DNA from: Armatimonadota bacterium
Lineage (GTDB): Bacteria; Armatimonadota; UBA5829; DSUL01
Assembly (NCBI GenBank): GCA_039811685.1
Contig: JBDHZC010000005.1
Coordinates: forward strand, 72,057 to 136,056
Direction of reading: 5' to 3'
DNA: 64,000 nucleotides
Shown here in pieces: positions 1-24,334 of the stretch (position 1 is its first letter; the number at the start of each line of letters is the position of its first letter). The notes under the pieces were generated by a model. That model did not search any database, was not told the origin of the DNA, and was given only the letters and a program-made list of their open reading frames with translations. A program made the translations under genes and the position numbers.

Positions 1-111
1 GATGCCTTGAGTGGGTTCTTTACGCCGACGGGTCAGTCCGGCTACTACCTCTACAAGAAGCAGTCGCCCAGCGACGTGCGGCTGGAAGGAAGAGAAGTTC
101 CGTACCCGTAG
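1..111 (+). CDS. Small peptide, 5'-truncated at window edge (…DALSGFFTPTGQSGYYLYKKQSPSDVRLEGREVPYP*); paralog of the peptide at 4820..4939
   Basis: Reading frame from position 1 to TAG at 109-111. It is 85-90% identical at nt and aa level to the 39-aa ORF at 4820..4939, which lies just downstream of an E element. The flanks are also duplicated. Confidence 0.35.
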   Translation, partial: DALSGFFTPTGQSGYYLYKKQSPSDVRLEGREVPYP

Positions 112-135
112 CGCCTATCGGCGAAAGAGGATGAA

Positions 136-1128
136 ATGTTTCGACAGTTGATCTGGTTTGTCACAGCAGCGCTCCCTTTGCTCGCACTTGTGCTCGCCGC
201 GGCCGCGTGCGGTGCAAGCGATATTCCGGTCGCTGTGCCCGCCCCCGGAGAGCCGCCTGTTCTGTTCGCTGCCGAGTCAGCAGGTGTGCTCTACACGGCA
301 ACTCTGGAGGCGGACAAGCGCGTTGCGGTCATCGCCGCCCTGCCGCTTGATCGAGTTGCGGAAAAACGGACTTACACAGTGCCGGTACCCGCTCTCGAAT
401 ACGAAAGTTTCCAGCGGCTCCGCTGGAGACTGGGCAGCGGATACGCGTGGCTGCTGCCAACGGTGCTGACGAATGGTGGCTTACGCCGCTACCCGATGTA
501 TCGCATTCCGCGCAGCGAACTCGACAAACTCCTCCACGGCAGTAACGAAGCCAGCGGAAGCGGCTTGAAAGACATGTGGTTTCCGCCGGGCTTTGCGCCA
601 CTCACACGCGCGGACGATGAATCCGGGGTGAAAGGGCAGCCGATCTACGGAGACTTCTACCCTATCTCTACATCAGCTATCCGGCAGTTCATTTTGCAGG
701 GCAGCGTACTGAGCGTCTGGGACTACATCGGAAACCCAGACGCCAAGCGGCCTGGGGGAAGTGACAGAGACCTCACTCCCGTGGCTGACCGAGAGCGGTA
801 CTTCAACTGGGTCCGCGTGGTGAAGCTGAAGGCGCCTTTTACGGAGTCCTTCCACGCGTTTCCTCAGAAGGGCGGGTTCCTGCTGGTTACGGACTCCGGC
901 GCGCTCTACTCCATCACGGGCATCAGCACCGGTACTCCAGCGATACGCAGGGTGGATCTGGGCGACGAGCAGATCAGGGTTATCGTGCAGACGGAGGGTG
1001 GATCGGCCATTGCGGCGACGCAGACGAAGCGCCTCGATCTGTCCTCGGCGCCGAAGCTGTCGCCGCTTTCGCATCCGCACAGCTCACCGACGGCTGCGGC
1101 CCTTGAGCTGGCCAAAGCGCTGAAGTAG
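136..1128 (+). CDS. Secreted protein/putative lipoprotein, P-family paralog (330 aa)
   Basis: ATG with upstream GAGGA. N-terminal hydrophobic signal with LAAAAC lipobox-like motif. Near-identical copy at 4964..5956. C-terminus …LELAKALK is shared with 3400..4482 and 7300..8325. Confidence 0.6.
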   Translation: MFRQLIWFVTAALPLLALVLAAAACGASDIPVAVPAPGEPPVLFAAESAGVLYTATLEADKRVAVIAALPLDRVAEKRTYTVPVPALEYESFQRLRWRLGSGYAWLLPTVLTNGGLRRYPMYRIPRSELDKLLHGSNEASGSGLKDMWFPPGFAPLTRADDESGVKGQPIYGDFYPISTSAIRQFILQGSVLSVWDYIGNPDAKRPGGSDRDLTPVADRERYFNWVRVVKLKAPFTESFHAFPQKGGFLLVTDSGALYSITGISTGTPAIRRVDLGDEQIRVIVQTEGGSAIAATQTKRLDLSSAPKLSPLSHPHSSPTAAALELAKALK

Positions 1129-1181
1129 TAGCGGGGTCGGCCGCGCTCAGTGAAGGAAGTCAGCCATCGCGGAGTCAAAGA

Positions 1182-1358
1182 ATGGAGAAACAAGTAGCTC
1201 AGGCGCAGCAAACCGTTCTGACTCTTGAAGCTGCGACAGCTACCTGCGCCGATTGGAAGCAGTGGTGGGCCGAGAACCAGAGCCAGTTTCAGTCCGGCAC
1301 CAGGAGCAAAGCTGAAGCTGCGGCCTTCGAACCAGCCGAACCCGCAACGGAGCAGTAG
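1182..1358 (+). CDS. W-module small protein (58 aa, MEKQVAQAQQTVLTLEAATATCADWKQWWAENQSQF…)
   Basis: ATG 1182 preceded by a conserved GAAGGAAG-containing leader. Homologous to the ORF at 8379..8555 and to the C-terminal ~50 aa of the HEAT protein at 6209..7165. Ends at the TAG that begins E copy 1. Confidence 0.45.
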   Translation: MEKQVAQAQQTVLTLEAATATCADWKQWWAENQSQFQSGTRSKAEAAAFEPAEPATEQ

Positions 1359-1461
1359 CGGAGGAACAGCGCTTCATCCGCGCAGGTGTCCTCACCTGCG
1401 CATAGAATTGGCGAATCTTTCACCCACTGGCTCCAGGTGGGGACATCTGGAGAGATGTAAA
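1356..1461 (+). repeat. E element copy 1 (~105 nt structured repeat: 5' arm agcggaggaacagcgcttcatcc, hairpin 1, spacer, hairpin 2, GGAGAG-ATG-TAA)
   Basis: One of six near-identical copies. Hairpin 1 is gcgcaggtg-tcct-cacctgcgc at 1380..1401. Hairpin 2 is ctccag-N10-ctggag at 1431..1452. ATG 1455-1457 is followed immediately by TAA. Confidence 0.8.
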
Positions 1462-1553
1462 TGGGGGCCCTTCTGCCAGACTGGGACGATGATGATCCCA
1501 ATCTGAACGGGGCGGAGAACGAGGACCTGGACCAGGTGACACGCGTCGAATGA
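1461..1553 (+). CDS. Acidic small peptide (30 aa, MGALLPDWDDDDPNLNGAENEDLDQVTRVE)
   Basis: Its ATG directly abuts the TAA of the E minimal uORF (ATGTAAATG). Its stop TGA 1551-1553 overlaps ATG 1550-1552 (ATGA). Coding status is uncertain. Confidence 0.3.
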   Translation: MGALLPDWDDDDPNLNGAENEDLDQVTRVE

Positions 1554-1561
1554 GGAGACCA

Positions 1562-3034
1562 ATGGTTTACAATGGAGTTATGGTCGTCGCCCGGCAGAAA
1601 GGCCCTGCCGGCCACTATGCAGCTGTCCTCGCGATAGCCGCATTCGTGTCCGCAGTGTGTGCTGCACAAGCGGCGTGCGAACTGCCAACTCACGGTTGGG
1701 AGTTCACAGTCGCAGCGGAGCACACGCCGGCTGTAGCGATCAGTAGAGACGGCTCGCGCATCGCCGTTTCCGACTGGGCGGCCATCTATCTACTTGACCG
1801 GCAGGGCAAGGTGCTGTGGACCGCGAAGGCGCCACCGAAGAGTGGCTTCGGAGTGACCGCCATCTCTGACACCGGCCATCGTGTGCTGTGCTGGAAGATT
1901 CGGCGCCTCCCAAGTGTGGACAACGAGGATATCGACTACAACGCGGTGCTCTTCAACGGCGCCAACGGGCAGGTGCTGACCGAGATCGAGCTGGACGGGG
2001 GCCGAGTGCCGACGGCGCTGTCTGGCGATGGACGGTATATTCTGGCGGGCTATCCGCCGGACGGCCTGGGCCTGGAAATGGCAGCACAGCCTGATCCCGC
2101 CAACTACCTCATGCTCTTAGATGACACCGGCAAGACCGTCTGGCGCTCAGACAAGCTTGCCCAAAAGCCCGTTGTCGGAGCGGCTTACGGCTTTTTATCC
2201 CACACCGGTTCCTATGCGCTGCTCGGCGCAAAAGACCGCCTGAACCTTGTGACCATCGGCGGCTATCACCTTTTCGACATTGCACTGACGTCAGACCCTG
2301 CCGTTTCCGCCGACGCTGACTTGATCATGATGGGCGCCACACCCGTGTTGTCCACAGACGTTCAGAAGTATGAGACCGCATGGCCTGTTGTCGCGCCACA
2401 GGGTGAGCAAGAGCCGCAGACATGGGGCCATGAGTCCTTTGGCTTCAAGACGTACACTGCAGCCGCGGCGCTCGCCTTGGTCCGCGTCGGGGATGTGGCC
2501 GAGGAGTCGCCTCCCCCGAACCGGCGGCATCCCTTTGCGGAGCTGGTGTGGGCGCATGGCGAGATCTGGGCGGGAAACCGGGAACGAGTGCTGGATGCGC
2601 CGAAGCTTCCGCCCATTCCCGCCGGTAATCCTGGACGGCGCGGGGTTGCCTACGGATCGGCTGGGCTGCTGGCAATTGTCGACCACACGCTGTTGGCGGC
2701 AGAGCTTGGGCAGGAGCACGCGGTGAAGTTGCTACGCCTGCCAGGGCTGGGGATTGTGAAAAGGGTCGGCGTGTCCAGCAACGCTTCCCGCGCCTACACT
2801 CTCGTCGCCGTCCCCGCTGGGTCCGATCTAGTGGGACGCGGCCCCAGCACGGGTTCGGCGGCTTCCGCTCTTGTCTGCACCGTCTGGGACAGGTCTGCCA
2901 AACCTGTTGCAACAATGCCTCTTTCAGAGCAGGAGAGGCCCTTCGCGATAGCCTTCTCCCACGCAGGCGATCTCCTGATCCTAGCGTGGAAGGGTAAGGT
3001 GCAGGCGTTCGAGATCGGAGGCGTCGCCAGGTAA
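1562..3034 (+). CDS. Secreted beta-propeller-like (PQQ/WD40-like repeat) protein
   Basis: 494-aa ORF; ATG 1562 preceded by GAGGAG at good spacing (alternative ATG 1550). Hydrophobic N-terminus and repeated …DG..IAVSD/…LLD.QGKVLW-like strands. It occupies the same position as the P-family genes between E copies 1 and 2. Confidence 0.5.
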   Translation: MVYNGVMVVARQKGPAGHYAAVLAIAAFVSAVCAAQAACELPTHGWEFTVAAEHTPAVAISRDGSRIAVSDWAAIYLLDRQGKVLWTAKAPPKSGFGVTAISDTGHRVLCWKIRRLPSVDNEDIDYNAVLFNGANGQVLTEIELDGGRVPTALSGDGRYILAGYPPDGLGLEMAAQPDPANYLMLLDDTGKTVWRSDKLAQKPVVGAAYGFLSHTGSYALLGAKDRLNLVTIGGYHLFDIALTSDPAVSADADLIMMGATPVLSTDVQKYETAWPVVAPQGEQEPQTWGHESFGFKTYTAAAALALVRVGDVAEESPPPNRRHPFAELVWAHGEIWAGNRERVLDAPKLPPIPAGNPGRRGVAYGSAGLLAIVDHTLLAAELGQEHAVKLLRLPGLGIVKRVGVSSNASRAYTLVAVPAGSDLVGRGPSTGSAASALVCTVWDRSAKPVATMPLSEQERPFAIAFSHAGDLLILAWKGKVQAFEIGGVAR

Positions 3035-3237
3035 CCCGGGTCGAGAACCCAATGCAGTTGACTTACTACGCCGACTGGAACTCAGAGACCGTAGCGATGG
3101 CCGGACTGCTTGCCGGAGGGGACGGCCAGTGCGGCTCCGCCTCAGGCGCAGCACGACGGCCTGGAGGGCCCGGCCTAGCAGCAGATGGTCGCCTGTCTCA
3201 CGGATATGAAGACCGCGCTGGGGTGTCCCCAGGCTAT

Positions 3238-3328
3238 GCTTCATCCGCGCAGGTGTCCTCACCTGCGCATAGAATTGGCGAGTCCTTCGCCCACTGGCTC
3301 CAGATGGGGACACCTGGAGAGATGTAAA
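3238..3328 (+). repeat. E element copy 2 (5' arm degenerate)
   Basis: gcttcatccgcgcaggtgtcctcacctgcgcatagaattggcgagtccttcgcccactggctccagatggggacacctggagagatgtaaa, with ATG 3322-3324 and TAA 3325-3327. The upstream 200 nt look like a decayed W-module. Confidence 0.75.
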
Positions 3329-3399
3329 GCTCGACCTGATATCGAGTGACGTAGCCGGCAGGGAAGCCTCGTATCCATAGCGTTAGAAGGAGTCACTAG

Positions 3400-4482
3400 A
3401 TGAAGATCACCGCTGTTGCCAAAGCTCTTCTTGTCTGTTGGTTGGCGGTCGACGCCGTCAGCCCTGCCGTCGCCGAGAGCTATCTATTCAGTGAAGAGAC
3501 GAAGCACCCCCTGATCGTCCAGCGCCCGCTGACAGGCATACTGGTTGATGAGACTATGTACACTCTCTCGATCGCGCCAGAGTCGGGCTATGCGCCTGTA
3601 CTGACGGAGACGCCGATGACCGCGCTTGCCGCGCCTGTCAGCTACGCTCTCACCGCAGTAGCCGACGCCAGACGCCCGGCCTTTCCTGTTCACTGGTCGC
3701 TGCGTGGAGGTTTTGTTTGGACGTTGACTGAGTCCGATACGCCGCTGAGTGGCATAGTGCCGTTTTACTTCAGTCTTCAGCGGACTGCGCTGACTGGCCT
3801 GGAGCCGTGTGCCGCAGCCACCACGCATGTGGTCAAGCCCGGTACTGTTGCCGATGTGTGGCACGCTCATCTGGCTAAGTGGGAGCGTGTCGCTTTCACT
3901 GAGCCCGAGACGCTGAACGACGCGACGCGGGCCGCCCGGCCTCCCGAGGTACCCTATCCTCTTGCCGCTATCGTGGTGACGGGACCGGTGACCGTCCAGC
4001 TTTTCCAGTTGACCGCCCCACATATGATGGGATGGGAGTACCGTGGGCCGGAGAAGCCTCGGCGGTGGAAAGCCGCGTTTGGGCCGGGGATGGCGCCGAT
4101 CTCTCCCGAGAGTCAGCGGGGCGTGCCTCTCAAGGAGCGTACTCACTCCGGCGACTGGTGGCGCATAGGGATGTTCGACGTTCCCTTCAGCGAGGCCTAG
4201 GAAGTGGCCAAGGTCGAAGGTACCTACTACGCCGTGACACAGAGCGGAGAGGTTTTCTCTCTGGGCGACCTTACCGGGAAAGTAAAGAAGATCGACATAG
4301 GAGGCAGACGTGTGACGGCGATTCTGACGCTGGAGGAGAGCGGAAAGGTGTATCTTTGTTCGCATGAGGACTACGCGCCGCTGTCGGATTCGCCTGGATT
4401 CAAATCCATTCCTGGAGGACACCCAGACGTCACCAGATCGGCAACGCAGTGCCTGCTGGACCTGGCGAAGGCGTTGAACTAG
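3400..4482 (+). pseudogene. P-family paralog interrupted by a single in-frame TAG (3400..4200 plus 4204..4482 in the same frame)
   Basis: Signal peptide at N-terminus. The last ~90 aa (…GGRRVTAILTLEESGKVYLCSHEDYAPLSDSPGFKSIPGGHPDVTRSATQCLLDLAKALN) are near-identical to the C-terminus of 7300..8325. TAG at 4198-4200 is in frame and flanked by homologous sequence on both sides. Confidence 0.5.
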
Positions 4483-4538
4483 CGCAGGGACTGCCATCCG
4501 CACGCAGTGAAGGAAGGCAGCCATCGCGGAGTCAAAGA

Positions 4539-4716
4539 ATCGAGAAATGAGCGGCTCAGGCGCAGTAAAGCGATCTGAATCTGAAGGCCGCGGAAGCTGC
4601 CAGGTCCGATTGGGAGCAGTGGCGGGCAGAGGACCAGAGCCAGTTTCAGTCCGGCACCAAGATCAAAGCTGAGGCTGGCGCACCCTCGATGTCGCCCGGC
4701 CCCGCGGCTCAGCCGT
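4539..4716 (+). pseudogene. W-module small ORF, degenerate copy (start ATG to ATC, internal TAA)
   Basis: Aligns to 1182..1358 and 8379..8555. Start codon mutated (aatCgagaa), stop within 'cagtaaagc', and a diverged middle. The 3' end …WEQWRAEDQSQFQSGTKIKAEAGAPSMSPGPAAQP* is retained. Confidence 0.5.
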
Positions 4717-4818
4717 AGCGGAGGAACAGCGCTTCATCCGTGCAGATGAGCGCATCTGCGCATAGAATTGGCGAATCTTTCACCCACTGGCTCCAGGTGG
4801 GGACACTTGGAGAGATGT
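4716..4818 (+). repeat. E element copy 3
   Basis: Hairpin 1 gtgcagatg-agcg-catctgcgc is a compensatory variant. Hairpin 2 is ctccag…cttggag. ATG 4815-4817 is followed by TGA, which overlaps the ATG of the next ORF (ATGTGATG). Confidence 0.8.
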
Positions 4819-4819
4819 G

Positions 4820-4939
4820 ATGCAAGACGATGCGTTGAGCGGGTTCTTTAGGCCGGCGGGTCAGTCCGGCTACTACCTCTACAAGAAGCAGTCGCCCAGC
4901 GATGTGCGGCTGCAAGATACTGAAGTTCCGTACCCGTAG
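4820..4939 (+). CDS. Small peptide (39 aa, MQDDALSGFFRPAGQSGYYLYKKQSPSDVRLQDTEVPYP)
   Basis: ATG overlaps the stop of the E minimal uORF. Conserved in the duplicate at window start (1..111), with mostly conservative changes. Confidence 0.4.
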   Translation: MQDDALSGFFRPAGQSGYYLYKKQSPSDVRLQDTEVPYP

Positions 4940-4963
4940 CGCCTATCGGCGAAAGAGGATGAA

Positions 4964-5956
4964 ATGTTTCGACAGTTGATCTGGTTTGTCACAGCAGCGC
5001 TCCCTTTGCTCGCACTTGTGCTCGCCGCGGCCGCGTGCGGTGCAAGCGATATTCCGGTCGCTGTGCCCGCCCCCGGAGAGCCGCCTGTTCTGTTCGCTGC
5101 CGAGTCAGCAGGTGTGCTCTACACGGCAACTCTGGAGGCGGACAAGCGCGTTGCGGTCATCGCCGCCCTGCCGCTTGATCGAGTTGCGGAAAAACGGACT
5201 TACACAGTGCCGGTACCCGCTCTCGAATACGAAAGTTTCCAGCGGCTCCGCTGGAGACTGGGCAGCGGATACGCGTGGCTGCTGCCAACGGTGCTGACGA
5301 ATGGTGGCTTACGCCGCTACCCGATGTATCGCATTCCGCGCAGCGAACTCGACAAACTCCTCCACGGCAGTAACGAAGCCAGCGGAAGCGGCTTGAAAGA
5401 CATGTGGTTTCCGCCGGGCTTTGCGCCACTCACACGCGCGGACGATGAATCCGGGGTGAAAGGGCAGCCGATCTACGGAGACTTCTACCCTATCTCTACA
5501 TCAGCTATCCGGCAGTTCATTTTGCAGGGCAGCGTACTGAGCGTCTGGGACTACCGCGGAAACCCAGACGCCAAGCGGCCTGCGGAAAGTGACAGAGACC
5601 TCACTCCCGTGGCTGACCGAGAGCATTACTTCGACTGGGTCCGCGTGGTGAAGCTGGAGGCGCCTTTCACGGAGTCCTTCCACGCGTTTCCTCAGAAGGG
5701 CGGGTTCCTGCTGGTTACGGACTCCGGCGCGCTCTACTCCGTCGCGGGCATCAGCACCGGCACTCCAGCGATACGCAGGGTGGATCTGGGCGACGAGCAG
5801 ATCAGAGTTATCGTGCAGACGGAGGGTGGATCGGCCATTGCGGCGACGCAGACGAAGCGCCTCGAGCTGTCCTCGGCGCCGAAGCTGTCGCCGCTTTCGC
5901 ATCCGCACAGCTCACCGACGGCTGCGGCCCTCGATCTGGCCAAAGCGCTGAAGTAG
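4964..5956 (+). CDS. Secreted protein/putative lipoprotein, P-family paralog (330 aa); recent duplicate of 136..1128
   Basis: About 97% aa identity to 136..1128. The upstream 140 nt are also duplicated. Followed directly by TAGTAG and E copy 4; the W-module ORF is absent here. Confidence 0.6.
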   Translation: MFRQLIWFVTAALPLLALVLAAAACGASDIPVAVPAPGEPPVLFAAESAGVLYTATLEADKRVAVIAALPLDRVAEKRTYTVPVPALEYESFQRLRWRLGSGYAWLLPTVLTNGGLRRYPMYRIPRSELDKLLHGSNEASGSGLKDMWFPPGFAPLTRADDESGVKGQPIYGDFYPISTSAIRQFILQGSVLSVWDYRGNPDAKRPAESDRDLTPVADREHYFDWVRVVKLEAPFTESFHAFPQKGGFLLVTDSGALYSVAGISTGTPAIRRVDLGDEQIRVIVQTEGGSAIAATQTKRLELSSAPKLSPLSHPHSSPTAAALDLAKALK

Positions 5957-6062
5957 TAGCGGGGGAACAGCGCTTCATCCGCGCAGATGAGCTCATCTGC
6001 GCAAAGCATTGGCGAGTCCTTCACCCACTGGCTCCAGGTGGGGACACCTGGAGAGATGTAAA
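5957..6062 (+). repeat. E element copy 4
   Basis: Hairpin 1 is gcgcagatg-agct-catctgcgc. ATG 6056-6058 and TAA 6059-6061. Confidence 0.8.
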
Positions 6063-6071
6063 GCGACGTTC

Positions 6072-6212
6072 GTGGCGGCAATCAACCAGGAGAGGATCGC
6101 GGGTGATAAGGATTACGAGGAGCAGGCCTACGGCGCGGAGGCCGTGTGCGAAATGGACCTGCTGGAGGAGACGTGCGCGTACGTCACGCCGCCATGTGAG
6201 GCGTGTCCATGA
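6072..6212 (+). CDS. Acidic 4-Cys small peptide A (…DKDYEEQAYGAEAVCEMDLLEETCAYVTPPCEACP); start codon uncertain (GTG 6072?)
   Basis: Open frame from the E element to TGA 6210-6212, which overlaps ATG 6209 of the HEAT gene (ATGA). Homologous to peptide B at 8660..8782 with pattern C-x8-C-x6/7-C-x2-C. Confidence 0.4.
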   Translation: MAAINQERIAGDKDYEEQAYGAEAVCEMDLLEETCAYVTPPCEACP

Positions 6213-7165
6213 CCATGGTATGCAGTCCTAGAACGGAGGTCGTTTTGAAACTCTTTATTGTGCTACTGCTTGCTGCTGCTCTTTGTGTTACGGCAATATC
6301 CGAGGGTGCGTCGGCCGAGCGCACGTGTGCCGCCACCAGGTATTACCGCTCCACGGTTTCTGAGTTGGTCGGGCTGCTTTCGAGTGGGCTGTCTATCGAC
6401 CGGTTCGACGCGGCTCTCGAACTCGGGCGGCGAGGCGATGTGTCAGTGATCCCTGCAATGAAGGCTGCGCTTGGCGATCCGGAGCGTTTCGTGCGGATGC
6501 GGATAGCTGCTGCGCTGCTGGATCTCGGCGATCGAAGCGGCGTGGAGGTACTTCACGAAGTTGTTACGTCGGGTGAGCCCTACTGGAGTCTGGCAGCGGC
6601 GGAGGTGCTTGCCCATCACGGTGACACCTTTGGCCGTGATCTCATCAGGAAGGCTCACTCTTCGAGCAGTTGGGTCGCTCGCTCCTCAGCCTTAAGGGCC
6701 TCGGCCGACCTTCCGGAGGGGCCGCCCTACGACGCCGTGGCTGCCGGACTGGAGGACTCGCAGCAGATTGTCCGCTTGACCGCCCTGAGGGCTGCTCAAA
6801 TGTGCCATGACCCCCGGGTGAAGGATCTGGTCCGCAAGGCGTTGTCTTCTTCCGATACGCTTCTGAGGGCGCGCGCGGCCATCATAATTGCGGAGGAGGG
6901 GCAGCCCGCAGACATTCCGGCTCTGATAGCGCTGTTGACAGCTCCGGATGGGGTTACCCGTTCTGCCGTTCTCAGAGCACTGCAGTCGCTGACGGGGCGT
7001 GCTTCTCCGTCGAAAACCGTTCTGACTCTTAAGGCTGCGACAGCTATCCGCGCTGAGTGGGAGCAGTGGTGGGCCGAGAACCAGAGCCAGTTCCCGCCTG
7101 GTACCAAGATCAAAGCTGAGGCTGGCGCACCCTCGGTGTCGCCCGGACCCGCGGCTCAGCCGTAG
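6209..7165 (+). CDS. Secreted HEAT-repeat (PBS-lyase/E-Z type) protein with C-terminal W-module
   Basis: Signal peptide (LKLFIVLLLAAALCV). Tandem repeats of the …LG(D)xxxxxxLxxxLxDxxxxVRxxAAxAL… type. The last ~50 aa (KTVLTLKAATAIRAEWEQWWAENQSQFPPGTKIKAEAGAPSVSPGPAAQP) match the free-standing W-module ORFs. GTG 6203 is an alternative start. Confidence 0.6.
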   Translation: MTMVCSPRTEVVLKLFIVLLLAAALCVTAISEGASAERTCAATRYYRSTVSELVGLLSSGLSIDRFDAALELGRRGDVSVIPAMKAALGDPERFVRMRIAAALLDLGDRSGVEVLHEVVTSGEPYWSLAAAEVLAHHGDTFGRDLIRKAHSSSSWVARSSALRASADLPEGPPYDAVAAGLEDSQQIVRLTALRAAQMCHDPRVKDLVRKALSSSDTLLRARAAIIIAEEGQPADIPALIALLTAPDGVTRSAVLRALQSLTGRASPSKTVLTLKAATAIRAEWEQWWAENQSQFPPGTKIKAEAGAPSVSPGPAAQP

Positions 7166-7267
7166 CGGAGGAACAGCGCTTCATCCGTGCAGAGGAGCGC
7201 ATCTGCGCATGGACTTGGCGAATCTTTCGCCCACTGGCTCCAGATGGGGACACCTGGAGAGATGTAA
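7163..7267 (+). repeat. E element copy 5
   Basis: Starts at the TAG of the HEAT gene. Hairpin 1 gtgcagagg-agcg-catctgcgc has one mismatch. ATG 7262-7264 and TAA 7265-7267. Confidence 0.8.
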
Positions 7268-7299
7268 GTCGCGAATACTGAGCGCAACTGAGATGCACA

Positions 7300-8325
7300 A
7301 TGAGAAGCAAAGGACACAGTAAAATGAGGGTACGGAAACGGCCTCTTCTTCTTCTCTTCGGAGTCCTACTTGTCACCACTCCACCAGCTGTCGGGCAGCC
7401 GTCTCCTGGTGTTCGCCTACGTCCTGGTCAAAGCCAACTGGTGCAGACTCCGCTGACGGCCTCTTCACGTGCGGGCGTTCTTTACACAGTGATCATTGAC
7501 AAAGGGCGTGCCTTGCTGCGGCAGACGCCTCTTGATACTTCATCGCCCGTTCGCTTCGCAAGTCTGGAGTCCTCCAGCCGTTTGACCGGTATCGGCCCGA
7601 TGTTTCCAGCGCATTGGGGACTTGCAGACGGCTTCCTTTGGTCGCTGGTTCTTGAAGAAGGAGACGCATACTGGGCCAGCCCACATCTAAGCCGCTTCGC
7701 GCTGGAGGACATGCGTCTCGTGGACCCGGACAACGCCCTTCCGCCTCGAGGCGCGCACCGCACAAGGCGCACAGAAGTCCCCCCGTATCCTCTCCTGGAT
7801 GCCATCGCGGAAGGGTCAAACCGTGACTTACTGGTCTTCCCCGCGCTTCAGCCCCTGTCGCGCAAATCCGTCCGCCTGTTCGTGCTGCAGCCGCCCGTGC
7901 TGACGGTATGGGTGAACGAAGACCCCGCGCTTTTCGCACCACGAACGTCCGGACGCAGCGTCGAAGGACGCGTGAAGGAAAAGGGCAGGATTGAGAACTG
8001 GTTGAAGGTTGCGTCTATCAGTGTTCCTTTCGCCGAGCCTTTCGAAGTTGTTGGGTGCGGTTCCGTCTGCTACTTCATCACAGGAAGCGGGGACCTCTAT
8101 GCAGATAAAGATCTGAAGGCAAGTCCGCAGAAGATCGACACAGGAGGCAGGCGCGTGACGGCGATTCTGACGCTGGAGGAGAGCGGAAAGGTGTATCTTT
8201 GTTCGCACGAGGACTACGCGCCGCTGTCGGATTCGCCTGGATTCAAATCCATTCCTGGAGGTCACCCAGGCGTCACCAGGTCGGCAACGCAGTGCCTGCT
8301 GGACCTGGCCAAAGCGCTGAAGTAG
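7300..8325 (+). CDS. Secreted protein, P-family paralog (341 aa)
   Basis: Basic N-terminus followed by a hydrophobic signal (RPLLLLFGVLLVTTPPAVG). Middle region recognisably homologous to 3400..4200. C-terminal 90 aa near-identical to 4204..4482, ending LLDLAKALK. Alternative start at 7324. Confidence 0.6.
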   Translation: MRSKGHSKMRVRKRPLLLLFGVLLVTTPPAVGQPSPGVRLRPGQSQLVQTPLTASSRAGVLYTVIIDKGRALLRQTPLDTSSPVRFASLESSSRLTGIGPMFPAHWGLADGFLWSLVLEEGDAYWASPHLSRFALEDMRLVDPDNALPPRGAHRTRRTEVPPYPLLDAIAEGSNRDLLVFPALQPLSRKSVRLFVLQPPVLTVWVNEDPALFAPRTSGRSVEGRVKEKGRIENWLKVASISVPFAEPFEVVGCGSVCYFITGSGDLYADKDLKASPQKIDTGGRRVTAILTLEESGKVYLCSHEDYAPLSDSPGFKSIPGGHPGVTRSATQCLLDLAKALK

Positions 8326-8378
8326 TAGCGGGGTCGGCCGCGCTCAGTGAAGGAAGTCAGCCATCGCGGAGTCAAAGC

Positions 8379-8555
8379 ATGGAGAAACGAGCGGCTCAGG
8401 CGCAGCAAACCGTTCTGACTCTTAAAGCTGCGACAGCTATCCGCTCCGATTGGGAGCAGTGGTGGGCCGAGAACCAGAGCCAGTTCCCGCCTGGCGCCAA
8501 GATCAAAGCTGAGGCCGCACCCCCGGCGTCGCCCGGACCCGCGGCTCAGCCGTAG
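8379..8555 (+). CDS. W-module small protein (58 aa, MEKRAAQAQQTVLTLKAATAIRSDWEQWWAENQSQFPPGAKIKAEAAPPASPGPAAQP)
   Basis: Same conserved leader (cagtgaaggaagtcagccatcgcggagtcaaag) and ATG context as 1182..1358. Ends at the TAG that starts E copy 6. Confidence 0.45.
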   Translation: MEKRAAQAQQTVLTLKAATAIRSDWEQWWAENQSQFPPGAKIKAEAAPPASPGPAAQP

Positions 8556-8659
8556 CGGTGGAACAGCGCTTCACCCGTGCAGAGGAGCGCATCTGCGCAT
8601 TGAATTGGCGCATCTTTCGCCCACTGGCTCCAGGTGGGGACATCTGGAGAGATGTAAAC
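8553..8659 (+). repeat. E element copy 6
   Basis: Hairpin 1 is gtgcagagg-agcg-catctgcgc. ATG 8652-8654 and TAA 8655-8657. Carries an internal TGA in the frame that is open in the other copies. Confidence 0.8.
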
Positions 8660-8782
8660 AAACAACGTGATGAAGAAGAAGCGTACTCCGAACAGGAGAT
8701 GTGCGAGAGGCTTACGTTGGACGACTGGTGTACATTTGGTATCCACGGGCCCTGCACGGCGTGCGATGATCTCAATGACTAG
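8660..8782 (+). CDS. Acidic 4-Cys small peptide B (…RDEEEAYSEQEMCERLTLDDWCTFGIHGPCTACDDLND); start codon unresolved
   Basis: Homolog of peptide A with the same Cys spacing and the conserved EE.AY…C.E motif. Ends at TAG 8780-8782, 20 nt upstream of the second HEAT gene. The only in-frame ATG is at 8699; the homology extends upstream of it. Confidence 0.35.
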   Translation, partial: KQRDEEEAYSEQEMCERLTLDDWCTFGIHGPCTACDDLND

Positions 8783-8801
8783 CAAGATGATGGAGGAAAG
8801 A

Positions 8802-9716
8802 ATGACGAAGATGGTAGCGCTGGTTCTAATCTGCGGGTGGTTCGGCTGGGGTGGTGTCTGTGCTGCGGGGCCGGCTACCCCTGTCACCGCCACAAATGGC
8901 TCAGCGACTCGTTCACCGGATTGTGACGAGGCGAGTGTCCCTGAATTGATTGCCATCCTTCGTGAGCGTGGAACCTTTGCTGTCCGTGCAGCACAGCTCC
9001 TTGCGGATCGCCACGCGACGTCTGCAATTCCGGATCTCGCGCTGTTGTTGACGGATCCGAAAATCTCTCTGCGGATAAATGCGGCGCGTGCAATGGCGCT
9101 CCTGGGAGACCGGAGCGGGTTACCAGTGCTGCGGGCGGCGCTGACAGAGGGTGACGATTTCCACGCCTCTATCGCGGCCGCTTTTCTGGCGCAGCTTGGC
9201 GACGACAGTGGGCGCGCGGTTTTGGAGAGGGAACTCAGTAGTCAAAACTGGATCGACCGGAGGCAGGCCCTGTACGCATTGGCGCTTCTTCCGGATGGTC
9301 TGTCTGATGTGGCTGTTGCAGCGGCTCTAGAGGACGAAAGGCCGGAGGTACAAAGAAGCGCGTTTCGTGTGGCCTGGAAAAATGCGTCTGATAGGGTGCG
9401 GGAGGTGTTGATTAAAAAGACACAGTCCCCGGATCCGCTTACCCGCTGGCGGGCGACTGAGGCCCTGTTTATGAGTAACCCGCACCGAAACGCAGAGATT
9501 GCTATTGGCATGATTACGGATCCGGACCGCCTCGTACAGGGACAAACATCCATGATGCTGGCGCATTTCTCCCGTGTGGCTGTGCCTCGGGTGAGCGGGT
9601 GGATGAGGAGTGCCGAGCGGGCAAGAGATCTCAAGCAGGCGTATCTGGAGTGGCTGGCGGTTAACAGGGACGTGGCGTTCCCGCCAACCGAGCCGGCGCC
9701 GCCTGCACCGCAATAG
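8802..9716 (+). CDS. Secreted HEAT-repeat (PBS-lyase type) protein with a diverged native W-like C-terminus
   Basis: GGAGG then ATG 8802. Signal peptide (MTKMVALVLICGWFGWGGVCAAG). HEAT repeats (…AARAMALLGDRSGLPVLRAAL…). C-terminal QAYLEWLAVNRDVAFPP resembles AIRAEWEQWWAENQSQFPP. An in-frame upstream ATG at 8667 would add a non-signal extension. Confidence 0.6.
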   Translation: MTKMVALVLICGWFGWGGVCAAGPATPVTATNGSATRSPDCDEASVPELIAILRERGTFAVRAAQLLADRHATSAIPDLALLLTDPKISLRINAARAMALLGDRSGLPVLRAALTEGDDFHASIAAAFLAQLGDDSGRAVLERELSSQNWIDRRQALYALALLPDGLSDVAVAAALEDERPEVQRSAFRVAWKNASDRVREVLIKKTQSPDPLTRWRATEALFMSNPHRNAEIAIGMITDPDRLVQGQTSMMLAHFSRVAVPRVSGWMRSAERARDLKQAYLEWLAVNRDVAFPPTEPAPPAPQ

Positions 9717-9828: not shown

Positions 9829-10719
9829 CTACACCCGCTTGCGGCGAACCACCCCTGCCAGTGATACCAGGCCGGCTCCCAGCGCGAGCAGGGAACCCGG
9901 CTCAGGCACCAGCGTCAGCGAGAAGTCATCAAAGTAGCCAGTCTGGCTTCCGAACTTTGAGTTCACTTCTATAACATTGTAGCCGTAGTTGAGCACGGAA
10001 TTATGAGTCAGCGTCGGATTCACCATGTCGTCAATGTAGAACCAGACGTCGTTTGTGCCGTCGCCGAGCGCAGGCCCAACCACGATGCGCGCCTGATGCC
10101 AACCAACGCTTCTGCTGGTGCTGGTGTTGAACCATCCGTTAGGGCCGCCGTAGCCGTCGCTGGACCCGACAACGCGAGCCTGATACTTGCTGGTATCCCC
10201 GGTGCTTTGCGCTCCCAGTGAAAGCCGCTGGATCTTGCTGGCGCCGGCGTTCAGGCTGCCCGATCCAGGATAGTCAGTGCCGGAAGGCGCCGTGTTGTAA
10301 TAGCCAAGAGCGACGTAGTCCTTGAAGTTGCCGTCACCCGCGCCACCGACGTCGTAGAACCACCAGTCGAGCGTCAGATTCCCGGTAAAGACGTTGCCGC
10401 CGTTGAAGCGATAGGCGATATTCAACCAGTTCTGGTCAATGTCTGCCCCGCCTACGAAGGCTCCGCGAAGCATGTGGTCACCACTGTGGGGCGTGACGCC
10501 GCTGTCGGTCGAAACTACCTGTCCGTTTGGCGGGTTGGGGCCGAACCAGGGGTTGCCGGACCCGTTTGGCGCCGAGTTCGCGCCACCGGGGGCATTCTTG
10601 TCGAGCGCGCCGATATTGGCGCCCTCAAATCCGTCTGTAAAGACGGGAGCCGCCTGCGCCGTGAAAGCTGTGGCCACAACCAAAAGTCCCACCGCGCAGA
10701 GGAGCATTCCTCTTTTCAT
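9829..10719 (-). CDS. PEP-CTERM sorting-domain secreted protein
   Basis: Start MKRGMLLCAVGLLVVATAFTAQA (signal peptide). C-terminal VPEPGSLLALGAGLVSLAGVVRRKRV is a PEP-CTERM motif plus TM helix plus basic tail. Confidence 0.65.
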   Translation of the reverse strand: MKRGMLLCAVGLLVVATAFTAQAAPVFTDGFEGANIGALDKNAPGGANSAPNGSGNPWFGPNPPNGQVVSTDSGVTPHSGDHMLRGAFVGGADIDQNWLNIAYRFNGGNVFTGNLTLDWWFYDVGGAGDGNFKDYVALGYYNTAPSGTDYPGSGSLNAGASKIQRLSLGAQSTGDTSKYQARVVGSSDGYGGPNGWFNTSTSRSVGWHQARIVVGPALGDGTNDVWFYIDDMVNPTLTHNSVLNYGYNVIEVNSKFGSQTGYFDDFSLTLVPEPGSLLALGAGLVSLAGVVRRKRV

Positions 10720-11129
10720 ACTTTCTCCTTCTGTCTGCCTGCAGTCAGCCGATCTTACGCCGGCTTGCACTCTAGCAGTACACAAACGTACTTAATTTAG
10801 AATATCACTGCGTACTTATAGAGTCAACTGGTAATTTGGTGTCAAAATCTCATCCTTTTTCCAGGTGAAGCGCAGAAAGCGCAGGATGCCTTTACTGTTG
10901 CGCGACCGGACCGGTGTCTGACGTATTTGCATTCGGATTGCGCTAAGGCCACCGCCCGTGGTATACTCCTGCGTCTGTGAAAGTCGTCACAGGCTTTGCA
11001 CTTACAGAGACGATGGCCACTTCTTGAGGGCAGAGCCAGCGCAACAGAGTTCCACAGACACATAGTTGAGGGTGGAATCAGAACCACGGCCGACTGTGGC
11101 AACTCCGCCTGCTGCTCGTAAATGCTCGC

Positions 11130-11762
11130 ATGAACCAACAGACCCAAAAGGTGCCGGTGCCGACTCTGGAGCGCATGGCAAGATATCTTGCCTGCCTGCT
11201 TGATCTCGACGCAAAAAGCGTTGAGACGATCTCTTCCGCGGACATGGAGCGCTATACGGACGTCAACGCCGCTCAATTCCGCAAAGATCTCTCGTACTTT
11301 GGCGAGTTTGGACGTCCCGGCATCGGCTACAGCGTGCCGGAGCTCACCCGCCGGATCAGCAAGATTCTAAAAGTGGACAGAGAGCAGCCGGTGCTACTGG
11401 TAGGAGCGGGCAATCTGGGGTCGGCGCTTGCGGGCTACCCGAGTCTCTCCCGGGAACACTTCAGAATCGCTGCGGTTTTCGACAACAATCCCGCCAAGAT
11501 CGGTCACAAACTCTGGGACGTAGATATTTACGACATTTCGAAGATTGCGGAGGTCAATGCGCGGAGCATAGACGCCAGACTCGCCATTATCGCAGTGCCA
11601 TCCGCAGCAGCTCAACAGGTGGCGGACGCAGTTGTGAAGTGCGGGGTCACCGCTATTCTCAATTTCGCTCCAGTGACACTGCGAGTTCCGCGTGAAGTGA
11701 CAGTGCGCAATGTAGATTTTGTGCAGGAGCTTGCCGTACTGTCGTTTCACCTGGCTCCCTGA
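11130..11762 (+). CDS. rex: Redox-sensing transcriptional repressor Rex
   Basis: Full-length similarity to Rex family: N-terminal wHTH (…RDLSYFGEFGRPGIGYSV…) and Rossmann NADH domain (LVGAGNLGSAL…ILNFAP). Confidence 0.85.
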   Translation: MNQQTQKVPVPTLERMARYLACLLDLDAKSVETISSADMERYTDVNAAQFRKDLSYFGEFGRPGIGYSVPELTRRISKILKVDREQPVLLVGAGNLGSALAGYPSLSREHFRIAAVFDNNPAKIGHKLWDVDIYDISKIAEVNARSIDARLAIIAVPSAAAQQVADAVVKCGVTAILNFAPVTLRVPREVTVRNVDFVQELAVLSFHLAP

Positions 11763-13277
11763 ATGGCGCGCGTCAGGGATATACGCACTGTCTCGGTGCG
11801 TACAAAAATCCTCGTGCCGGTTCTCTTCATTGTTGTCGCTGTCTTTGCCGCTATTCTCTACGGCGCCGCTCTGGTACTGGAAGCGCAGCGGCACGAATAC
11901 TCCCGAAGAATTGGTAGAAGAGTCTCCAGCGCTGTTGCTGGCGGGTTGCACTCCGCTCTGATGACTGGACGCAAAACCGAAGCACAGGAAGCCATCCGGG
12001 TTATGCTCTCCGAAGCGGACCTCCCTCCCAGTCAAATCGCTATTCGCAAGCTGGACGGCGCTTACTGGATTCGCGGCGGCGACAATACAATCCCGCCGCA
12101 TTCGTTTGCGCTGAAACCGTCTCTAAAGGAGAACTCCAGCCGAGAGTTCAGCGTTGGCGCTGCCCGTTTCATCAATACCACATCAGTTCTCCCGAATGAG
12201 CCTGAGTGTCAAAGCTGTCACAGCCCCGCCACCCGAGTGCTCGGCTATCTCGAAGTGGACCTTCCCGTGGTCTGGGTGCGCCAGCGCCACCAGGCGACTC
12301 TCACGGCTATCGCCGTTATTGCGGGGCTGACGCTTCTGCTGCTGGCTGTTGCAATCGTTTTGTCCGTCCAGATAGCGGTTGTTACGCCGATCAAGGGTCT
12401 GGCAAGCGCTATGACGGTGGTTAAGGGCGGGCATCGCGATGTTCAGGTGGAAGCCGGACCGGAAGACGAGATCGGCATGCTGAGCAGACGGTTCAACGAG
12501 ATGGTGGATGAAGTGGCTGAGGCGGAACACTCTCTTGTCGAAAAAGAGCACCAGCTTGCGCGGGCGGAGAAGCTGGCTGGGATTGGGCTGATGGCTGCGG
12601 GAATCGCCCACGAGATAAATAACCCGCTGACCGCTGTGTCGATGGCCGCGGAGAGTATCAATCTCCCCAACGCCACACAAGAGCAGCGGCAAAGGCTGAG
12701 CGCCTACATTCTGGAGGGTACGCGGCGAATCCAGGATATTGTGGCTGAGCTTCTGACGCTGGATCAGAAGCGAGCTTTGAATGTGACTGAGCAGGACGTT
12801 GCGGAGATCGTCCACGCCGCGCTGGCTGGCAGACAGATTCCCGGTAACATCACGGTGCACGCCAGTTTGGCTCCGGATCTTCCAAAAGTTCACGTGGACT
12901 GGGAACGAATTGTGAGGGCAATCGGCAACCTTGTGAAAAACGCTCTCCAGGCGATGCCTGACGGGGGAGAATTGACTTTGTCTGCAGAAGCTGGAAAAGG
13001 CGAGGTACTGATTGACATCAAGGATACAGGTGGAGGTATAGCCCCCGAACATCTCCACCGCATTTTTGATCCTTTTTTCAGCACGCGGGAGGTCGGAGAA
13101 GGCTTTGGACTGGGACTGGCTTTTGCGCACGCTGTGGTGAAGCAGCACGGGGGGGACATAACAGTCAGCAGCGAACCTGGCCGTGGAACGGCATTTACAA
13201 TCTCGTTGCCCGTTGAGCCGGGAGCGAACCCAGAGGAACCTGGTGATTCCAGGGACGTGTCAGAGATGGAGGAATAG
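11763..13277 (+). CDS. Sensor histidine kinase with periplasmic CxxCH heme-binding motif
   Basis: TM segment, periplasmic domain containing CQSCH, second TM, H-box (IAHEINNPLTAV), and HATPase_c G-boxes (DTGGGI…GLGLAF). Confidence 0.7.
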   Translation: MARVRDIRTVSVRTKILVPVLFIVVAVFAAILYGAALVLEAQRHEYSRRIGRRVSSAVAGGLHSALMTGRKTEAQEAIRVMLSEADLPPSQIAIRKLDGAYWIRGGDNTIPPHSFALKPSLKENSSREFSVGAARFINTTSVLPNEPECQSCHSPATRVLGYLEVDLPVVWVRQRHQATLTAIAVIAGLTLLLLAVAIVLSVQIAVVTPIKGLASAMTVVKGGHRDVQVEAGPEDEIGMLSRRFNEMVDEVAEAEHSLVEKEHQLARAEKLAGIGLMAAGIAHEINNPLTAVSMAAESINLPNATQEQRQRLSAYILEGTRRIQDIVAELLTLDQKRALNVTEQDVAEIVHAALAGRQIPGNITVHASLAPDLPKVHVDWERIVRAIGNLVKNALQAMPDGGELTLSAEAGKGEVLIDIKDTGGGIAPEHLHRIFDPFFSTREVGEGFGLGLAFAHAVVKQHGGDITVSSEPGRGTAFTISLPVEPGANPEEPGDSRDVSEMEE

Positions 13278-15461: not shown

Positions 15462-15561
15462 TCAACTCAGGCTCAGCCGCTGCAGCAGGAAGTGGAATCT
15501 GCGTGTGCGGGTAGAGTACGGGGACAAAGAGCTATACGGATTGTTCGGTGATTTTTAGCAG

Positions 15562-16296
15562 ATGGCTGAGCTGAAACAACAACATTTTGACAGTGGTGAA
15601 TACTGGATAAAGCGGCACGAAGAGTTCGATCGCTCGCATCAGGCGACCGGGCTTCTCGGCTCTTCAGAGCGATCCAACACCGTGCTCTACGATCTGCGCA
15701 GACAGGCGCTGATGGAGGCGATTGGCTCCGTCGATCTCAGTGGGCGGCGCGTGCTGGACGCGGGCTGCGGGCTTGGCGACTTCTCCCGGTTTTACAAGGA
15801 ACGCGGGGCGCTGGTGAGCGGGTGTGATATCTCAGATCTGGCGGCTGAGAAGTGTCAGCAGGCGGGACTTGGTACTTTCCGGGCCGGACGCTTGAAGGAC
15901 ATCCCCACGCTTTTCCCCGGACAGACCTTTGACATTGTTCACTGCTTTGACGTCCTGTATCACATTGTGGACGATGAGGAGTGGCGCGAAACGCTGGATG
16001 CTTTCGAACAGGTCTCAGGACCAGAAACAGTCTGGTATATTATCGAGCTTGCGCGGGCGAAAGGGTCTTCTGTTCACGTGAAGGTCCGCGGTACACGTAC
16101 TTACGGGCAAGAGCTGGCAAAGCGCGGGCGCTTCATCGCGCGTGACCGTCGTATCCACTGGTTGCTGAGTGTCTTTCCGCGCCTGCACGCCCTCAATCCC
16201 CGGCTGTCCTATGCCTTCGAGCGTCTGACAAAGTGGAGCCCGACGGCGAAGGCGCCGAGGGGAGCGCTGTGGACGATAAAGCGGGGGCAGGCATGA
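15562..16296 (+). CDS. Class I SAM-dependent methyltransferase
   Basis: VLDAGCGLGDF motif I and acidic motif II. Confidence 0.6.
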   Translation: MAELKQQHFDSGEYWIKRHEEFDRSHQATGLLGSSERSNTVLYDLRRQALMEAIGSVDLSGRRVLDAGCGLGDFSRFYKERGALVSGCDISDLAAEKCQQAGLGTFRAGRLKDIPTLFPGQTFDIVHCFDVLYHIVDDEEWRETLDAFEQVSGPETVWYIIELARAKGSSVHVKVRGTRTYGQELAKRGRFIARDRRIHWLLSVFPRLHALNPRLSYAFERLTKWSPTAKAPRGALWTIKRGQA

Positions 16297-16342
16297 TGGC
16301 GTATGCAATCAAAGCGATGCACGCAGAAAGGCTTTCTGGTCT

Positions 16343-17083
16343 GTGGCCTCTTTGCTGAAGGCTCTGAGGCTTGGCGCGGCTTCGGCGCGGGTGAAGGATC
16401 CCGCGATGAGCGAAGCGCTTCGCGAGGGCGCATCAGCCTGGGGAAGTGTGACGGGCTGGTCCATTCATCCGGATGCTCTCGGCGCACTTGCTGAATATGT
16501 CCCAGACAGCTCGGTACGTGTAATCGAGTGTGGATCGGGCTACTCAACCGGCGTCCTGCACCTGTGGGCCCGAAAGCGTAGGGCAGCATGCTCTGTGACC
16601 AGCTATGAACACGAGGACGAACAGATTGAGCGTTTGCACAGTGTTCTGGACGGGGAGGCTCTGAACGGAGTTGTCAAATCCAGCCTCAGCCAGCTCACGG
16701 AGCACCGGTTTCGGGAATTGCTTGGGTCCGGCGCAAACGCAGTAAACTACTGGAAGCAGTGGGCAGACCCTCTTCCACATGACCTCTACTCCACAACCCG
16801 CGTCTCCCGCGTCTTCTACACAGAGCTTGCCGAGAATCCGCCAACACTTTCAGACGATGAGACGCTGGTGGTCATCCTGGACGGGCCGCACGGCAACGGC
16901 CGCTCGGTCGCGTTTCCGATTCTGGCCGCCTCTTCAAAGCGCGAGTCCATCTGGCTGATTGACGACTACGACCACTACCCCTTTGTTGAGGAGATGAGCC
17001 AGGTCTATGCGCTTTCGGATCAGCAGACGCGCCACGAAGGCACAAAGCGCTGGACTATCGTCCGCGCGACACCAAAGAGCTGA
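16343..17083 (+). CDS. Hypothetical protein (possible methyltransferase-like fold)
   Basis: Weak VIECGSGYSTG motif-I-like segment. Lies in the polysaccharide cluster. Confidence 0.3.
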   Translation: MASLLKALRLGAASARVKDPAMSEALREGASAWGSVTGWSIHPDALGALAEYVPDSSVRVIECGSGYSTGVLHLWARKRRAACSVTSYEHEDEQIERLHSVLDGEALNGVVKSSLSQLTEHRFRELLGSGANAVNYWKQWADPLPHDLYSTTRVSRVFYTELAENPPTLSDDETLVVILDGPHGNGRSVAFPILAASSKRESIWLIDDYDHYPFVEEMSQVYALSDQQTRHEGTKRWTIVRATPKS

Positions 17084-17091
17084 GAGGCGAC

Positions 17092-18111: not shown

Positions 18112-18126
18112 CAGGCGTCACGGGCT

Positions 18127-22281: not shown

Positions 22282-22283
22282 GG

Positions 22284-24331: not shown

Positions 24332-24334
24332 GAT

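Follow-up and report, generated by a model that had tools for sequence, protein, structure and literature searches.

We analysed a stretch of 64,000 nucleotides (nt) from an Armatimonadota genome (contig JBDHZC010000005.1 of assembly GCA_039811685.1, positions 72,057 to 136,056), referred to below as the window. Positions 1-9716 of the window hold an array of same-strand genes for predicted exported proteins, and a conserved element of ~100 nt, here called E, lies before each gene. Two of the array genes, HEAT1 and HEAT2, encode HEAT_2 repeat proteins. In the interval between each of them and the preceding E copy we found a short reading frame for an acidic peptide with four cysteines (pepA before HEAT1 and pepB before HEAT2, Table 1), and such frames precede only the two HEAT genes among the genes of the array. 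Our analysis suggests that pepA and pepB encode real small proteins and form the first cistron of a peptide-HEAT unit, a reading to which we give a probability of about 0.55.

Table 1. Features of the array and the basis on which each was placed; aa, amino acids; ORF, open reading frame
Feature	Position	Strand	Description	Basis or context
pepA ORF	6072..6212	+	46 aa from GTG 6072, ending in DYEEQAYGAEAVCEMDLLEETCAYVTPPCEACP; stop TGA 6210-6212	annotation, Logan calls, similarity to pepB
pepB conserved frame	8660..8782	+	KQRDEEEAYSEQEMCERLTLDDWCTFGIHGPCTACDDLND, ending in DEEEAYSEQEMCERLTLDDWCTFGIHGPCTACDDLND; stop TAG 8780-8782	ORF 8558-8782, frame table
HEAT1	6245..7165	+	HEAT_2 repeat protein, 306 aa from TTG 6245, signal-peptide-like N-terminus	Pfam HEAT_2 1.9e-20
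HEAT2	8802..9716	+	HEAT_2 repeat protein, 304 aa from ATG 8802, signal-peptide-like N-terminus	Pfam HEAT_2 9.5e-21
E copies (n=6)	1351-1461, 3218-3328, 4711-4821, 5952-6062, 7158-7268, 8548-8658	+		80-100% identity to reference copy
E copy 4	5952..6062	+	start-stop ATG-TAA 6056-6061	before pepA
E copy 6 (E6)	8548..8658	+	start-stop ATG-TAA 8652-8657	before pepB
Small ORF after first E copy	1461-1553	+	30 aa, 10 D/E, no Cys, MGALLPDWDDDDPNLNGAENEDLDQVTRVE	begins right after TAA (ATG-TAA-ATG)
Small ORF after third E copy	4820-4939	+	39 aa, ATGTGATG	ATG overlaps TGA of third E copy
494-aa protein gene	1550-3034	+		post-E gene
Orphan 330-341-aa family, 4 members	136-1128, 3400-4482 (split by stop), 4964-5956, 7300-8325	+	no Pfam match	post-E genes

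The two peptides have in common the motif EE.AY and the cysteine spacing C-x8-C-x6/7-C-x2-C, the latter within a longer conserved scaffold, C-E-x3-L-[DE][DE]-x-C-x-[YF]-x0-1-[VI]-x2-P-C-x-A-C. In pepA the conserved part starts at 6114 (YEEQAY) and the cysteine core covers 6147-6206. Each peptide has 11-12 D/E against 2-3 K/R, with a net charge of about -9, and a signal peptide is absent from both. The preliminary description of this DNA had reported the two frames with their cysteine spacing, the EE.AY motif and the acidity, all of which are present. The strict motif C-x8-C-x6/7-C-x2-C occurs exactly twice in the six frames of the 64-kb window, against 0.2 occurrences expected, and both occurrences are on the same strand and between an E copy and a HEAT gene.

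The frames resemble each other as proteins and not as DNA. When the two E-to-HEAT spacers were compared in all frames, the peptide frame pair gave a local BLOSUM62 score of 66, higher than any of the 35 other frame pairs: the eight remaining sense pairs scored 14-31, and the antisense pairs at most 42. None of 20,000 composition-preserving shuffles reached this score (mean 22.4, standard deviation 4.5, maximum 53). Free local alignment of the spacer DNA scored 10, where 9.0 ± 1.4 is expected by chance. Different codons are used at nine of the 12 identical residues, including three of the four cysteines, and the identity between pepA and pepB by codon position is 0.49/0.63/0.40. The Nei-Gojobori proportions of nonsynonymous and synonymous differences (pN and pS) are 0.41 and 0.86 in the peptide frame, with synonymous divergence saturated, against pN/pS of 0.45/0.52 and 0.52/0.37 in the shifted frames of the same DNA alignment. 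The guanine-plus-cytosine content (GC) by codon position is about 0.66-0.67/0.44-0.45/0.78-0.79 for pepA and 0.56/0.39/0.61 for pepB; both follow the profile of the genome's genes (~0.65/0.50/0.70), and the other frames do not. The spacers fold no better than shuffled sequences (z of +0.24 and +0.58), and no minus-strand ORF is common to the two sites. Since the DNA similarity is at chance, the protein score lies beyond the shuffles and pN is low only in the peptide frame, the similarity between pepA and pepB is, on these statistics, the product of selection on the amino-acid sequence; it does not stem from chance, from an antisense gene or from an element in the DNA or RNA. That the diverged DNA argues for coding constraint had been proposed before, and the pN/pS values, the codon-position GC and the frame controls strengthen the argument. 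The part upstream of the first cysteine carries less signal: its EE.AY similarity is modestly significant (anchored protein score 19, p ~0.013), and at the DNA level 19 of 36 nt agree (p ~0.0007), most closely at codon position 2.

The peptides have diverged together with the genes that follow them. HEAT1 and HEAT2 share 32% identity in BLASTP (E 3e-26), with pN 0.50 and pS 0.74 (saturated); pepA and pepB are 34% identical, their pS is saturated as well, and at nonsynonymous sites they are slightly better conserved than the HEAT proteins. Because the divergence of the peptides matches that of the HEAT paralogs, peptide and HEAT gene appear to have been duplicated together and both retained, and the simplest history would be one old duplication of the peptide-HEAT unit with both parts kept in both copies.

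pepA is predicted by two independent gene callers. PGAP annotates it as a 46-aa hypothetical protein from GTG 6072 (MCC6483681.1, in GCA_020846715.1) and the Logan gene calls agree. The Logan call at pepB is a gene truncated by a contig end, with pepB as its 3' part. Both peptide cores are identical in other assemblies of the same organism (the metagenome-assembled genome, MAG, at NCBI and eight Logan contigs, from several sequencing runs), and the sole pepA difference among them is A3E at 6079. The GTG at 6072 is in frame and lies 11 nt after the TAA of E, without a usable Shine-Dalgarno (SD) sequence, the GGAG of E being 18 nt upstream. An alternative pepA start, GTG 6144, stands directly before the first cysteine and would give 22 aa. 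The corresponding codon in pepB, ATG 8699, is also directly before the first cysteine, would give 27 aa and is the only in-frame start after E6, although the frame stays open back into E6, where TTG 8600 and GTG 8558 are found. GTG 6144 and ATG 8699 are aligned, and theirs is the sole start position common to both peptides (M-C-E...). Many genes in the window have no SD sequence, and the sequence upstream of ATG 8699 is A-rich and predicted to be unpaired.

The ends of the peptide frames are placed close to the starts of the HEAT genes. In the sequence ATGA at 6209-6212 the stop of pepA and an in-frame ATG of HEAT1 overlap. After the pepB stop, the in-frame ATG 8787 follows at a distance of 4 nt and the GGAGG for ATG 8802 at 10 nt. 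The start of HEAT1 is ambiguous, with PGAP choosing TTG 6245 and Logan ATG 6209. Upstream of TTG 6245 is a GGAGG, aligned as CGGAGGTC, that ends 3 nt before the start, and upstream of ATG 8802, which is the PGAP start too, a GGAGG aligned as ATGGAGGA ends 4 nt before it. From TTG 6245 the signal peptide of HEAT1 begins at once, as it does in HEAT2, for which 8787 and 8790 are additional in-frame ATGs. The distance from the peptide stops to these SD-supported HEAT starts is 33 nt (TTG 6245) and about 19-20 nt (ATG 8802). The overlap of pepA with its HEAT gene, as first described, is thus present as ATGA, but HEAT1 may start further on, at TTG 6245; the 20 nt given for pepB and the second HEAT gene are 19 nt when counted to ATG 8802. 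The HEAT2 frame is also open further upstream, to GTG 8667 and ATG 8670, 10-13 nt after the TAA of E6, and there overlaps pepB in another frame. This extension is Arg/Lys-rich. We rejected the HEAT2 frame extended from GTG 8667 as the real gene, because the extension's values of 0.40/0.60/0.57 for GC by codon position do not resemble those of coding sequence. We also rejected a peptide-HEAT fusion by programmed frameshifting, or an ancestral anti-sigma-like protein, since the shifts required are -1 for pepA and +1 for pepB and the sequence is identical in independent assemblies.

Small ORFs that bridge E and a main gene are found elsewhere in the array. The TGA of the ORF at 1461-1553 overlaps ATG 1550 of the 494-aa protein gene (ATGA), and the GGAG of E is at a good SD distance from the ATG of this ORF. 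At the third E copy a change from TAA to TGA creates the ATG of the ORF at 4820-4939. Ahead of the gene at 136-1128 lies a paralog of the latter (1-111, plus strand) that differs at 10 of 111 nt and has kept the frame, and the genes downstream of the two are 97% identical. Since such ORFs recur in the locus, and given the geometry of the stops and starts, translational coupling from the peptides to the HEAT genes is plausible. In the predicted minimum-free-energy fold the segment 6064-6072, around GTG 6072, pairs with the HEAT1 SD at 6233-6241, in a helix that encloses the whole pepA ORF. The fold with this long-range pairing is no better than shuffled sequences, and there is no counterpart for pepB.

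All six E copies end in an SD-like sequence, a start codon and an immediate stop, GGAGAG-ATG-TAA in five and GGAGAG-ATG-TGA in the third copy, and E therefore has, judged from its letters, the formal attributes of a start-stop site. It is non-coding, as every frame has a stop in some copy. Two hairpins are predicted, of which the second pairs CUCCAGGU with ACCUGGAG and covers the SD-like GGAG. Searches of Rfam at the gathering threshold and at E<=5 returned nothing relevant for E or the peptides, and a 34-nt pattern of E had no match in the genome contig or in metagenome contig collections. E looks like a dedicated translational-control leader or intercistronic element. It was rejected as an integron attC site or a miniature inverted-repeat transposable element, because it is not one long imperfect hairpin, no integrase was seen and the copies are confined to the array. 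It was also rejected as a part of the peptide ORFs, given the stops that each frame has in some copy and the different frames used by pepA and pepB.

Relics of the 3' ends of HEAT genes, about the last 50 codons (with WEQWWAENQSQFPPG and the terminal GPAAQP), are found at 4567-4710 and 8404-8555 on the plus strand. They lie directly before the third and sixth E copies and downstream of non-HEAT genes. This suggests that the repeat unit is a gene's 3' end plus E, and that the array is a mosaic produced by recombination between E copies. In the orphan family, the member at 3400-4482 (plus strand) is cut by an in-frame stop into 3400-4200 and 4204-4482 and is either a pseudogene or a case of read-through. 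The contig JADLDK010000010.1 of GCA_020846715.1 ('MAG: Armatimonadetes bacterium') is 99.96% identical to the window; it has seven differences from it, all at 3033-6079 within the repeat array, and none in the next 11 kb. This cluster is compatible with gene conversion among paralogs or with repeat assembly.

We propose that pepA and pepB are paralogous protein-coding small ORFs that were duplicated with the downstream HEAT gene and, as the sequence statistics show, have since been kept by selection on their amino-acid sequence. In each unit the E leader, the peptide and the HEAT gene would follow one another on a single and probably polycistronic transcript; no terminator-like site was found on the plus strand between the array genes, including the E-to-HEAT intervals. 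Ribosomes that finish the peptide would probably help to load the HEAT start, either by termination-reinitiation or by unfolding of local structure, as the spacing of stops and starts suggests. The product would be a cytoplasmic, very acidic mini-protein of about 22-46 aa without a signal peptide. The conservation takes in the whole scaffold and not just a brief arrest motif or a few regulatory codons, which speaks for a folded mini-protein, and its four cysteines with fixed spacing would most likely hold one metal ion in a knuckle-like fold with Zn or Fe. Such a mini-protein might have a role in trans that is linked to the exported HEAT protein. We regard metal binding and action in trans together as a tentative proposal, on balance doubtful.

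Several observations weigh against the peptides as expressed proteins. Only two sequences from one organism are available for comparison. A search with the peptide profile in a word-indexed collection of 5.8 billion proteins found only the identical 46-aa protein, an exhaustive HMMER search of 1.84 billion representatives found only the peptide itself, and a back-translated metagenome scan confirmed with tblastn found none. The preliminary description had proposed such a search for the peptide family beside HEAT genes, and only this organism matched. It had also stated that neither frame has a canonical in-frame start, which does not apply to pepA with its GTG 6072; in pepB no in-frame ATG, GTG or TTG lies between the end of the start-stop in E6 (8657) and ATG 8699. 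At the short starts the SD spacing is poor, GGAGG being 2 nt from GTG 6144 and AGGAG 0 nt from ATG 8699, and with these starts the EE.AY similarity falls outside the ORF; the homology upstream of the two codons thus counts against the short forms. Counted from the ATG of E, pepA and pepB are read in two different registers (+1 and -1), and the first start codons after E6, GTG 8667 and ATG 8670, are in the HEAT2 frame and not in that of pepB. Reinitiation from the start-stop of E, suggested earlier as a minimal upstream ORF (uORF) that would serve the peptides, therefore cannot be the common mechanism for both. PGAP misses pepB and calls a 66-aa minus-strand ORF over the same site. It is also not obvious how a peptide in the cytoplasm would pair with a HEAT protein that carries a signal peptide. 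The AlphaFold2 model from the two-sequence alignment (predicted local distance difference test, pLDDT, 55; predicted template-modelling score, pTM, 0.19) was unusable, so that a metal-binding fold is a guess.

Other searches gave a similar picture. Pfam and NCBIfam at E<=10 returned no family for pepA or pepB, nor NCBIfam for the long pepB ORF, and a PDB sequence search with the peptides gave only a chance match (E 1.6). For the HEAT pair, a back-translated scan of GTDB genome contigs confirmed with tblastn found no relative. HEAT1 matched itself and three generic HEAT proteins in the word-indexed protein search, and the contigs of these three weak matches have unrelated neighbourhoods and no peptide frame. 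The orphan 330-341-aa family matched only itself in the same kind of search. For maturases of ribosomally synthesized and post-translationally modified peptides (RiPPs) we checked the called genes within 10 kb and made Pfam scans of ~30 further ORFs across the window, which showed a polysaccharide cluster and housekeeping genes. No radical SAM, YcaO, LanB/C/M or MNIO protein and no peptidase/exporter set was found in the 64-kb window, in agreement with the earlier remark that no RiPP maturase is nearby.

The peptides could instead be cis-acting leader peptides, that is, regulatory uORFs translated only to set the number of ribosomes that reach the HEAT start, with no role for the peptide itself; the ribosomes might, for instance, stall upon a metal, thiol or redox signal or according to cysteine supply. 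Their site between E, with its SD-sequestering hairpin and start-stop, and the HEAT ribosome-binding site would suit this role, the peptide stops adjoin the HEAT starts, and, with unrelated small ORFs after other E copies (1461-1553 and 4820-4939), a small ORF behind E looks like a general feature of the leaders. Translation of pepA from GTG 6072 would also melt the pairing of 6064-6072 with 6233-6241 at the HEAT1 SD, but this pairing is not seen for pepB. Against it, the conservation spans a 21-residue cysteine scaffold with fixed spacing and is not that of a short arrest motif or of regulatory codons, and with pN at 0.41 the peptides are under a nonsynonymous constraint no weaker than that on the HEAT proteins. 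There is also no terminator or antiterminator and no significant or shared RNA structure, and we consider a purely cis-acting role rather unlikely. Somewhat less likely still is that one or both frames, above all pepB, were once coding and are now untranslated, or are leftovers of a longer ancestral protein. pepB has no canonical start covering EE.AY outside E6, its motif stands 38 nt closer to E than the motif of pepA does, and its GC at the third codon position is lower (0.61 against 0.79); decaying genes would be expected in a mosaic locus with HEAT relics and a split gene. Against decay, both frames are intact, with all four cysteines and no internal stop, despite saturated synonymous divergence. 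The start codons GTG 6144 and ATG 8699 fall in the same alignment column, the A-rich and predicted unpaired region before ATG 8699 is as expected for initiation, and the lack of an SD is common to many genes of the window.

RiPP-like or peptide-derived cofactor precursors, with thioether chemistry on the cysteines by the PBS-lyase-like HEAT protein or an unlinked enzyme, are a very improbable reading. An acidic N-terminal part followed by a cysteine-rich C-terminal core would be in keeping with a precursor, and E-x3-Y is found in both peptides. Cysteines of proteins are the target of the bilin-lyase/NblB HEAT families, to which the HEAT proteins have weak matches, but at 45 and 22 bits against cut-offs of at least 300 these are generic repeat similarity, far below the cut-offs. 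No precursor family was matched in NCBIfam or Pfam at E<=10 and no maturase or peptidase/exporter set was found in the window; the Ser/Thr positions are not conserved between pepA and pepB, and the HEAT proteins have signal peptides where the peptides have none. Least credible of all is that the frames resemble each other by chance, or through an antisense gene or an element acting at the RNA or DNA level. In favour of this group are the low number of copies (two), the GA-rich leaders, in which one frame yields D/E, the minus-strand ORF that PGAP places over pepB, and an anchored DNA identity of 19/36 upstream of the first cysteine. Against this stand the shuffles, none of which reaches the observed score, the sense frame pair that beats all 35 others, a free DNA alignment at chance with no RNA structure signal, the lack of a minus-strand ORF common to both sites, and a pN much below pS only in the peptide frame, and this group of explanations is already close to refuted by the shuffles, frame pairs and pN/pS. 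The preferred reading remains that of real small proteins encoded ahead of the HEAT genes.

A bolder version of that reading would make the four-cysteine peptides the founders of a new thiol- or metal-bearing class dedicated to PBS-lyase-like HEAT proteins, either as substrates that take up a cofactor on cysteine or as metal or redox sensors whose translation, under the control of the hairpin and start-stop of E, would set the output of each exported HEAT protein. The array of E, small ORF and gene would then be an undescribed leader-based translational control system for secreted proteins. We consider this quite improbable. The wider significance is limited for now, as the system is confined to one uncultured Armatimonadetes species and no homologs were found. 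If the peptides are made, they would add a well-supported lineage-specific pair to the bacterial micro-proteins, with pepB missed by annotation, and they would offer a handle on the abundant and hardly characterised HEAT_2 proteins that bacteria secrete, and on the repeated E leader. The two copies are a natural experiment, having diverged to saturation and still with four cysteines and a HEAT partner.

The array is followed on the opposite strand by a gene for a PEP-CTERM protein (9829-10785, minus strand) and on the plus strand by genes for a Rex-like repressor and a HAMP/HisKA kinase (11130-13277). A long polysaccharide-synthesis cluster extends over 15500-32200 (plus strand), with glycosyltransferases, an epimerase, hexapeptide transferases and nucleotidyl-transferases. 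A cell-envelope or exopolysaccharide neighbourhood is a possible setting for the array.

We compared the peptides and E with known systems. The SCIFF precursor model has six cysteines in about 45 residues. Like SCIFF/ranthipeptide and other cysteine-rich RiPP precursors and PqqA, pepA and pepB are short, acidic, cysteine-rich and encoded just upstream of a partner gene; they differ from the SCIFF/ranthipeptide group in having four cysteines with another spacing, no NCBIfam match at E<=10 and no radical SAM/SPASM maturase in the window. With PqqA they have in common E-x3-Y (EEQAY and EEEAY), but there is no NCBIfam or Pfam match at E<=10 and no pqqBCDE in the window, where the only 'PQQ' match is to a beta-propeller repeat (PQQ_2) and, at 14.9 bits, stays below the cut-off of 27.6. 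The zf-HC2 domain at the N-terminus of anti-sigma factors (H-x3-C-x2-C, PF13490) gave no Pfam match at E<=10; pepA has no His, pepB has H-x2-C-x2-C, and no sigma factor gene is adjacent. Attenuator leader peptides differ in that no terminator or antiterminator is present here and the spacers fold no better than shuffles. As for E, start-stop sites mapped in Escherichia coli by retapamulin ribosome profiling (Ribo-seq) bind ribosomes, modulate the expression of the host gene and lie inside genes (bioRxiv 10.1101/520783). E has an SD-like GGAGAG, an ATG and an immediate stop in all six copies, as read from its sequence, but it sits in a repeated 5' leader with the SD inside a hairpin.

Two kinds of system come closer. 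In coupled upstream cistrons of bacterial operons the stop and start codons overlap (ATGA or TGATG) and translation proceeds by termination-reinitiation (reviewed in PMC5972666). The ATGA of pepA, the pepB stop 4 nt before ATG 8787 and the ATGA of the ORF at 1461-1553 could be comparable in this respect, whereas the best SD-supported HEAT starts are 33 and 20 nt past the peptide stops. The one-domain zinc-finger micro-proteins of prokaryotes, such as the C(P)XCG proteins of Haloferax volcanii, have fewer than 70 aa and consist essentially of four metal-ligand cysteines, arranged in two CxxC/C(P)XCG knuckles; acidity is common among them, and their partner or function is often unknown (PMC6562870, PMC11241148). 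pepA and pepB are likewise stand-alone, small and acidic with four cysteines, but each has only one CxxC (CEAC and CTAC), with the first two cysteines single and x8 apart. There is no sequence relationship between the two groups, and metal binding by pepA and pepB is a guess. The peptides are not members of any described family. By analogy they would most closely resemble the one-domain zinc-finger micro-proteins in function and translationally coupled upstream cistrons in layout, and they are a lineage-restricted pair of small ORFs of a familiar general kind.

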